DNA of 64,000 nucleotides from Escherichia coli (lineage in GTDB: Bacteria > Pseudomonadota > Gammaproteobacteria > Enterobacterales > Enterobacteriaceae): the NCBI RefSeq assembly GCF_003991155.1, contig NZ_CP031293.1; one strand, 5' to 3'. Shown in pieces: positions 45,306 to 45,794 of the stretch. Each line of letters opens with the position of its first letter. Position 1 is the first letter of the stretch. The notes below the pieces were generated by a model. The model saw only the letters and a list, made by a program, of their open reading frames with translations, was not told where the DNA came from and did no database searches. Both the position numbers and the translations under genes were made by a program.

Positions 45306-45794
45306 ATGCAATCCTGGTATTTACTGTACTGCAAGCGCGGGCAACTTCAACGTGCCCAGGAACACCTCGAAAGACAGGCTGTGAATTGCCTGGCACCGAT
45401 GATCACCCTGGAAAAAATCGTGCGTGGCAAACGTACTGCAGTCAGTGAGCCATTGTTCCCCAACTACTTGTTTGTGGAGTTCGATCCGGAAGTGATTCAT
45501 ACCACGACTATCAACGCGACCCGCGGTGTCAGCCACTTCGTGCGCTTTGGCGCGTCGCCAGCGATAGTCCCATCGGCGGTGATTCATCAGCTATCGGTAT
45601 ATAAACCGAAAGACATTGTCGATCCGGCAACCCCTTATCCGGGTGATAAGGTGATTATTACCGAAGGCACGTTCGAAGGTTTTCAGGCCATTTTCACCGA
45701 ACCCGACGGCGAGGCTCGCTCCATGCTGTTACTTAATCTTATCAATAAAGAGATTAAGCACAGTGTGAAGAACACCGAGTTCCGCAAACTCTAA
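45306..45794 (+). CDS. rfaH: Transcription antiterminator RfaH (NusG paralog)
   Basis: 162-aa [24 protein letters not shown]. Confidence 0.96.

Follow-up and report, generated by a model that had tools for sequence, protein, structure and literature searches.

The window, by which we mean the whole 64,000-nt stretch of Escherichia coli DNA that was analysed, contains the genes rfaH and tatD on opposite strands, converging until their 3′ ends interlock (Table 1). On the + strand rfaH closes with ...AAA CTC TAA; on the - strand tatD closes with ...GCG TTT TAG, its last sense codon TTT lying at 45796-45794. The central TA of the shared tetranucleotide, T45792 and A45793, is common to both stop codons. 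The first base is the third base of rfaH Leu162 (CTC), and the last is at once the third base of the rfaH TAA and of tatD Phe260 (TTT). An earlier note on this DNA had described the 3′ ends of rfaH (+) and tatD (-) as overlapping by 4 nt, and the sequence, the list of open reading frames and the RefSeq annotation all agree with that description.

Table 1. Features of the rfaH-tatD junction and its surroundings (positions in the window)
Feature	Position	Strand	Details
rfaH CDS	45306..45794	+	162 aa; stop TAA at 45792-45794; ORF list, RefSeq
tatD CDS	45791..46573	-	260 aa; stop TAG, the reverse complement of CTA at 45791-45793
rfaH/tatD overlap	45791..45794	both	4 bases, CTAA; read directly from the sequence
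Untranslated stretch past the rfaH stop	45795..45868	+	antisense to the tatD 3′ end, up to the centre of the Rho region
GC-rich hairpin between tatC and tatD	46590..46611	both	CAACCGCCC-N4-GGGCGGTTG; terminator scan
tatC	46615..47391	-	upstream of tatD in the tatABCD cluster; ORF list, RefSeq

The overlap would be unreal if one of the two stops were an artefact of annotation and not the true end of its protein. We found no support for this: the start of tatD is annotated variously, giving 264 or 260 aa, but that is the opposite end of the gene. The stop codons are unambiguous ends of open reading frames, and RefSeq has identical gene ends. RfaH matches its curated NCBIfam equivalog model with 290 bits (cut-off 124) and TatD matches its own with 536 bits (cut-off 395), both aligned to within one residue of the C terminus. 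Crystal-structure sequences go through the last residue of both proteins, with residues 1-162 of the 162 of RfaH matched in the E. coli structure 2oug and residues 1-260 of the 260 of TatD in the E. coli structure 4pe8. Because both proteins match solved structures to the last residue, the two stops are real ends; with the NCBIfam, 2oug and 4pe8 matches reaching the C termini, an artefact has next to no chance of being the explanation and was rejected. At its other end, four further codons (MEYR-) would take the tatD reading frame back to an ATG at 46585 on the - strand, the start of the 264-aa PDB entry 1xwy; the start used in RefSeq and in the 260-aa structures is the ATG at 46573, with GGAG 7 nt upstream.

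The geometry of the junction follows from the genetic code. The reverse complement of YTA is TAR, which is a stop codon, so the stop of rfaH supplies that of tatD, and a 4-base convergent overlap can arise only where a TAA or TAG stop is preceded by C or T. The possible tetranucleotides are CTAA, TTAA, CTAG and TTAG, and at this junction they interconvert synonymously, as C45791T would keep RfaH Leu162 and A45794G would keep TatD Phe260. There are 58-75 convergent overlaps in E. coli, and their modal length is 4, with the two stops on complementary strands (PMC2174442 and other literature). The presence of CTAA as a tetranucleotide is not beyond chance, and the arrangement is the modal one to be expected where convergent genes abut. 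Among the eight convergent pairs in the window, tatD/rfaH is the sole overlapping one; the other spacers measure 34-381 nt, and five of these seven contain a hairpin followed by a T-tract.

Two features elsewhere in the window were recorded in passing. An IS4 transposase adjoins typA (about 18960-20300), and the interval between udp and rmuC (about 53000-58450; NZ_CP029747.1 4667745-4673184) contains a TctABC-like tripartite tricarboxylate transporter block. That block also holds a 2-dehydro-3-deoxygalactonokinase, an aldolase and an IclR regulator, and it is not known from the same position in K-12.

The overlap is identical in the RefSeq annotation of strain 2016C-3878 (tatD 4679622-4680404, rfaH 4680401-4680889), from which the window differs at 2 of 64,000 positions, and in that of K-12 MG1655 (tatD 4023554-4024336, rfaH complement of 4024333-4024821). 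A gapless alignment of the window with MG1655, at 97.9% identity, gives the coordinate conversion used below, m = 4070127 - w, where m is the MG1655 position and w the window position. The rfaH-tatD region was found in 5,423 of 5,426 complete E. coli genomes, with 95-100% identity. In strain SCPM-O-B-8794 (L050), a second species representative that bears the name E. coli, the junction is CTAG, with both stops TAG, instead of CTAA; even within Escherichia, then, the overlap moves from one YTAR tetranucleotide to another. The rfaH-tatD overlap is real and ordinary, and both its annotation and its description in the literature precede this analysis.

The junction was compared across Enterobacterales by searching species-representative genomes with a degenerate DNA pattern for the RfaH motif WYLLYCKRG, which gave at least 120 loci; the set compared does not extend to Salmonella, Klebsiella pneumoniae and Shigella. 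Among the 120 matches listed, tatD lies convergently downstream of rfaH in 70 species. The gap between the two genes in these listed matches is exactly -4 in 19 species (13 TTAA, 5 CTAA and 1 CTAG), among them E. albertii, another E. coli lineage, Enterobacter, Lelliottia, Pseudescherichia, Pseudocitrobacter, a Citrobacter and several Pantoea. It is -6 in one species, 0 to +85 nt in 29 (for example Citrobacter, Klebsiella oxytoca, Kluyvera, Kosakonia, Erwinia and Rahnella) and larger in 21, at 445 nt in one and about 1.05-1.4 kb in 20. The value of exactly -4, always with YTAR, thus occurs in 19 of the 49 species among the matches listed whose spacer is at most 85 nt, and no species in these matches combines an overlap with a TGA stop in rfaH, as the geometry predicts.

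At three large-gap loci that were checked, those of an 'Enterobacter sp.', Pectobacterium and Serratia, a 340-aa open reading frame lies on the tatD strand between tatD and rfaH. The one from 'Enterobacter sp.' is hemB, encoding porphobilinogen synthase (NCBIfam, 517 bits), the one of the three extracted frames confirmed in this way. The large-gap loci include L007, L029 and L052, and gaps of about 1.05-1.4 kb are also seen in Dickeya, Brenneria, Edwardsiella, Hafnia, Cedecea, Budvicia and others. Several large-gap loci have a hairpin directly after rfaH. In E. coli hemB does not lie between rfaH and tatD, and in Vibrio and Morganellaceae rfaH does not adjoin tatD and is usually followed by a canonical terminator. 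Terminator-like sites within 130 nt after rfaH were seen in 23 of the 38 loci without tatD downstream, and two weak ones were seen in the 21 overlapping loci (both counts among the matches listed).

This distribution suggests that the spacer between rfaH and tatD collapsed in the Enterobacteriaceae/Erwiniaceae lineage, with loss of hemB and of the terminator from the site; that hemB was present first and lost later is an order we infer from the taxonomic distribution of the sequences. Once the genes abutted, they may have arrived repeatedly at the interlocked-stop state, which would be neutral and, as an end point, sticky. Its stickiness would lie in the synonymous swapping of CTAA, TTAA, CTAG and TTAG, and in the fact that a change of the rfaH stop to TGA would destroy the tatD stop.

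A terminator scan, a relaxed scan of both strands and RNA folds all failed to give a convincing hairpin with T-tract downstream of either stop near the junction. Folds of the ~180 nt downstream of each stop have unremarkable z-scores of -1.15 and -1.97, and an Rfam scan of 44900-46800 at E <= 1 returned no match. On the rfaH strand the first hairpin with a T-tract is the one between tatC and tatD, about 800 nt beyond the rfaH stop. Because there is neither intergenic DNA nor a nearby intrinsic terminator, each transcription unit runs antisense into the other gene. The antisense overlap could be short if intrinsic terminators hidden inside the coding sequence of the neighbour stopped each transcript within a few tens of nt. 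Lillo and Krakauer predicted Rho-independent terminators for ~20% of the E. coli genes in convergent overlaps (PMC2174442), and our relaxed scan gave weak candidates, among them a hairpin ending near 45853 and followed by ATCTTCTC, and an AT-rich one at about 45730-45757 on the - strand. However, no candidate passes the usual criteria, their tails are T-poor, and the z-scores given above do not favour them; moreover, no Term-seq 3′ end coincides with them in three conditions, and antisense polymerases are found by RNET-seq far past the candidate sites. We therefore consider hidden terminators of this kind very unlikely.

Published transcriptome data describe how far transcription goes. The earlier note had argued that the two transcripts necessarily overlap in antisense; the geometry forces this for at least 4 nt, and RNET-seq and RNA-seq extend it to a far longer stretch. 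Imashimizu et al. 2015 (PMC4457086) used rfaH/tatD as an illustrated RNET-seq example of convergent transcription, with antisense polymerase pauses in both genes: polymerases from rfaH reach the 5′ part of tatD, and tatD-derived antisense polymerase reaches the vicinity of the 5′ end of rfaH. Sense polymerases are confined to the 5′ part of each gene, which was interpreted as the outcome of collisions with opposing traffic, and an effect on RfaH expression was speculated on (PMC4457086). The pair tatD-rfaH is one of the 165 convergent overlaps that ExcludonFinder lists as occurring in half or more of 58 MG1655 RNA-seq samples (PMC12288877). RNA 3′ ends inside the coding regions ahead of the overlap, named beforehand in the earlier note as the result that would speak against it, are absent from a Term-seq catalogue covering three conditions (PMC7815308), in which no 3′ end on either strand is listed from 4023541 to 4024941 in MG1655 under the reported conditions. 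The supplements of a SMRT-Cappable-seq study mention neither rfaH nor tatD. An interpretation in terms of transcript overlap is supported and already published.

Evidence on how rfaH transcription ends comes from Adams et al. 2021 (PMC7815308, supplementary file 2), who list a Rho termination region at MG1655 4024259 on the - strand, labelled 'antisense tatD'. In the window this is position 45868 on the strand of rfaH, 74 nt beyond its stop. The region comes from a single dataset, DirectRNA-seq with and without bicyclomycin, and has a modest Rho score of 2.33 with p 6.9e-5, near the authors' cut-off of 1e-4; windows of 800 nt were used, so its position is approximate (PMC7815308). Read-through on the rfaH strand rises under Rho inhibition in this one published dataset (PMC7815308). 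Over the 78 nt that follow the rfaH stop the ratio of C to G is 25:18 (1.39), a moderate bias that drops below 1 afterwards, and a C-richer tract with C:G of 1.4-1.9 follows at +157 to +340. Termination by Rho near +74 is at best partial, because RNET-seq tracks rfaH-derived polymerases to the 5′ part of tatD. Downstream of tatD the RNA shows no enrichment in C (C:G 0.7-1.2), and no Rho region is listed for the tatD strand in the searched MG1655 range of 4024000-4024599, which leaves 4024600-4024821 outside it (PMC7815308). The statement in the earlier note that there is no room for terminators has to be narrowed accordingly. It stands as far as it refers to the lack of intergenic DNA and of a hairpin at the junction, that is, to intergenic intrinsic terminators only; termination still occurs, inside the neighbouring gene, and in the case of rfaH it is Rho-dependent.

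The hairpin between tatC and tatD has a fold energy of -16.7 to -17.8 kcal/mol and is followed on the rfaH strand by AATTTATTCTTCAGTTTTTT, a combination that could act as a second barrier to transcription reading through from rfaH. For the tat strand, Term-seq lists a 3′ end at MG1655 4023541 (+), annotated 'primary tatC' (PMC7815308); it falls at window position 46586, 4 nt after the hairpin, and most tatABC RNA ends at this hairpin, just after tatC. In E. coli the rfaH strand gives the hairpin a better T-rich tail than the tat strand does, so it may be bidirectional. It is conserved across Enterobacterales, with 84.7% of cells paired and changes on both sides in six of nine pairs (counted on the named 9-bp helix), and on four of five measures none of 500 shuffles reached the observed values; RNAalifold called only two pairs on the alignment, owing to register shifts. 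In nearly every one of the Enterobacterales sampled (L003-L121) a hairpin of the form ACCGCCC-N4/5-GGGCGGT precedes the tatD start by 13-20 nt, and compensatory changes in it are seen in Serratia, Pectobacterium, Hafnia and Rosenbergiella.

Taken with the data above, the likely course of events would be as follows. The ribosome would leave at 45794 and Rho would load on the naked, moderately C-rich RNA behind it, so that much rfaH transcription would end in the 3′ region antisense to tatD and Rho would be its main ending. Polymerases that escape Rho could run on to the tatC-tatD hairpin, which has its T-rich tail in that direction. In the opposite direction, tatD would be reached only by read-through of the tatC-tatD hairpin, or from an unmapped promoter; transcription of tatD would continue antisense through rfaH and end probably by Rho, by collision, or by running on towards ubiD, which is on the same strand. 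Very probably, then, rfaH/tatD is an ordinary YTAR overlap in which each unit runs into its neighbour and Rho mainly ends rfaH transcription, and no regulatory purpose is required.

Upstream of rfaH, Term-seq shows abundant 3′ ends at MG1655 4024970 and 4024941 on the - strand, with 27,000-62,000 reads (PMC7815308). These are window positions 45157 and 45186 on the + strand, 149 and 120 nt upstream of the rfaH reading frame, and they adjoin a weak hairpin at 45156-45173. Their reported Rho score is 0.99, their score as intrinsic terminators is 2.5, and Rfam gives no match. An RNA with such an end would cover the ubiD start codon (45139-45137) in antisense; it may reflect attenuation in an rfaH leader, or be a small antisense RNA.

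The junction could instead have been kept for a purpose: the overlap and the lack of a terminator would be maintained so that rfaH and tatD, or read-through from tat, repress each other by polymerase collisions or by RNase III cleavage of double-stranded 3′ regions, and so tune the virulence regulator RfaH. Imashimizu et al. (PMC4457086) attributed the clusters of sense and antisense pauses in both genes to collisions and proposed that RfaH expression may be affected, and ExcludonFinder classes the pair as an excludon (PMC12288877). The spacer is at most 85 nt in all 49 abutting species among the matches listed, and in a TraDIS-Xpress screen insertions in rfaH oriented antisense to tatD were noted, tatD being described as 'protected'. 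However, our literature search found no perturbation experiment on reciprocal expression of rfaH and tatD, and both genes are reported to be weakly expressed (PMC4457086), so collisions should be rare. The ExcludonFinder criterion applies automatically to any pair with overlapping coding sequences. The junction itself varies from -6 to +85, stop codons differ and hemB intervenes in many genera, and because it is so variable among genera it resembles the product of drift rather than a selected device. We think mutual repression unlikely as the reason for the arrangement, which is not to say that it and an ordinary overlap exclude each other.

A more elaborate proposal joins the terminator-less junction and the tatC-tatD hairpin into one collision-based control module. 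Read-through from tat would pass antisense through rfaH, towards ubiD, and lower RfaH; transcription of rfaH would silence tatD; and the reversed hairpin would shield tatABC. We regard this as distinctly improbable. If it were true, the level of a virulence and LPS antiterminator would be linked to tat-operon read-through across Enterobacteriaceae. That convergent transcription may set RfaH levels has already been raised in print; a demonstrated effect of this kind would have moderate interest, as RfaH governs the operons for LPS core, capsule, haemolysin and conjugation. The pair itself matters little beyond correct annotation.

Several known systems resemble this junction to different degrees. 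Bidirectional intrinsic terminators between convergent genes (Ju et al. 2019, as cited in PMC7815308) share its gene orientation. Relatives that have an rfaH-tatD spacer carry hairpins of this kind after rfaH (for example L007, L052 and L010), whereas the E. coli junction is without one and its nearest candidate is one gene away, between tatC and tatD; the GC-rich hairpin with A- and T-tracts between convergent stops that defines such terminators was not found at rfaH/tatD. The bicyclomycin-sensitive region past the rfaH stop is like the termination by Rho of untranslated and antisense RNA past stop codons (Peters et al. 2012, as presented in PMC7815308), and antisense sites are the largest class of Rho sites, at 51.5% (Adams et al. 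2021, PMC7815308). At rfaH/tatD this evidence covers one strand, at low resolution. The pair is named as a convergent excludon in MG1655 by ExcludonFinder (PMC12288877) and has antisense polymerases in both genes; the functional consequence that defines excludons, mutually exclusive expression or RNase III processing, is putative for this pair. The closest likeness is to the 4-nt stop-stop convergent overlaps of Lillo & Krakauer 2007 (PMC2174442), whose geometry is identical, with YTAR and the shared TA. Two genuine coding genes on opposite strands overlap here at their 3′ ends by exactly 4 nt within YTAR; we see no difference from that class, and rfaH/tatD is a member of it. The pair makes a clean textbook case of abutting convergent genes that interlock their stops and then, as the data suggest, rely on Rho and not on a hairpin.
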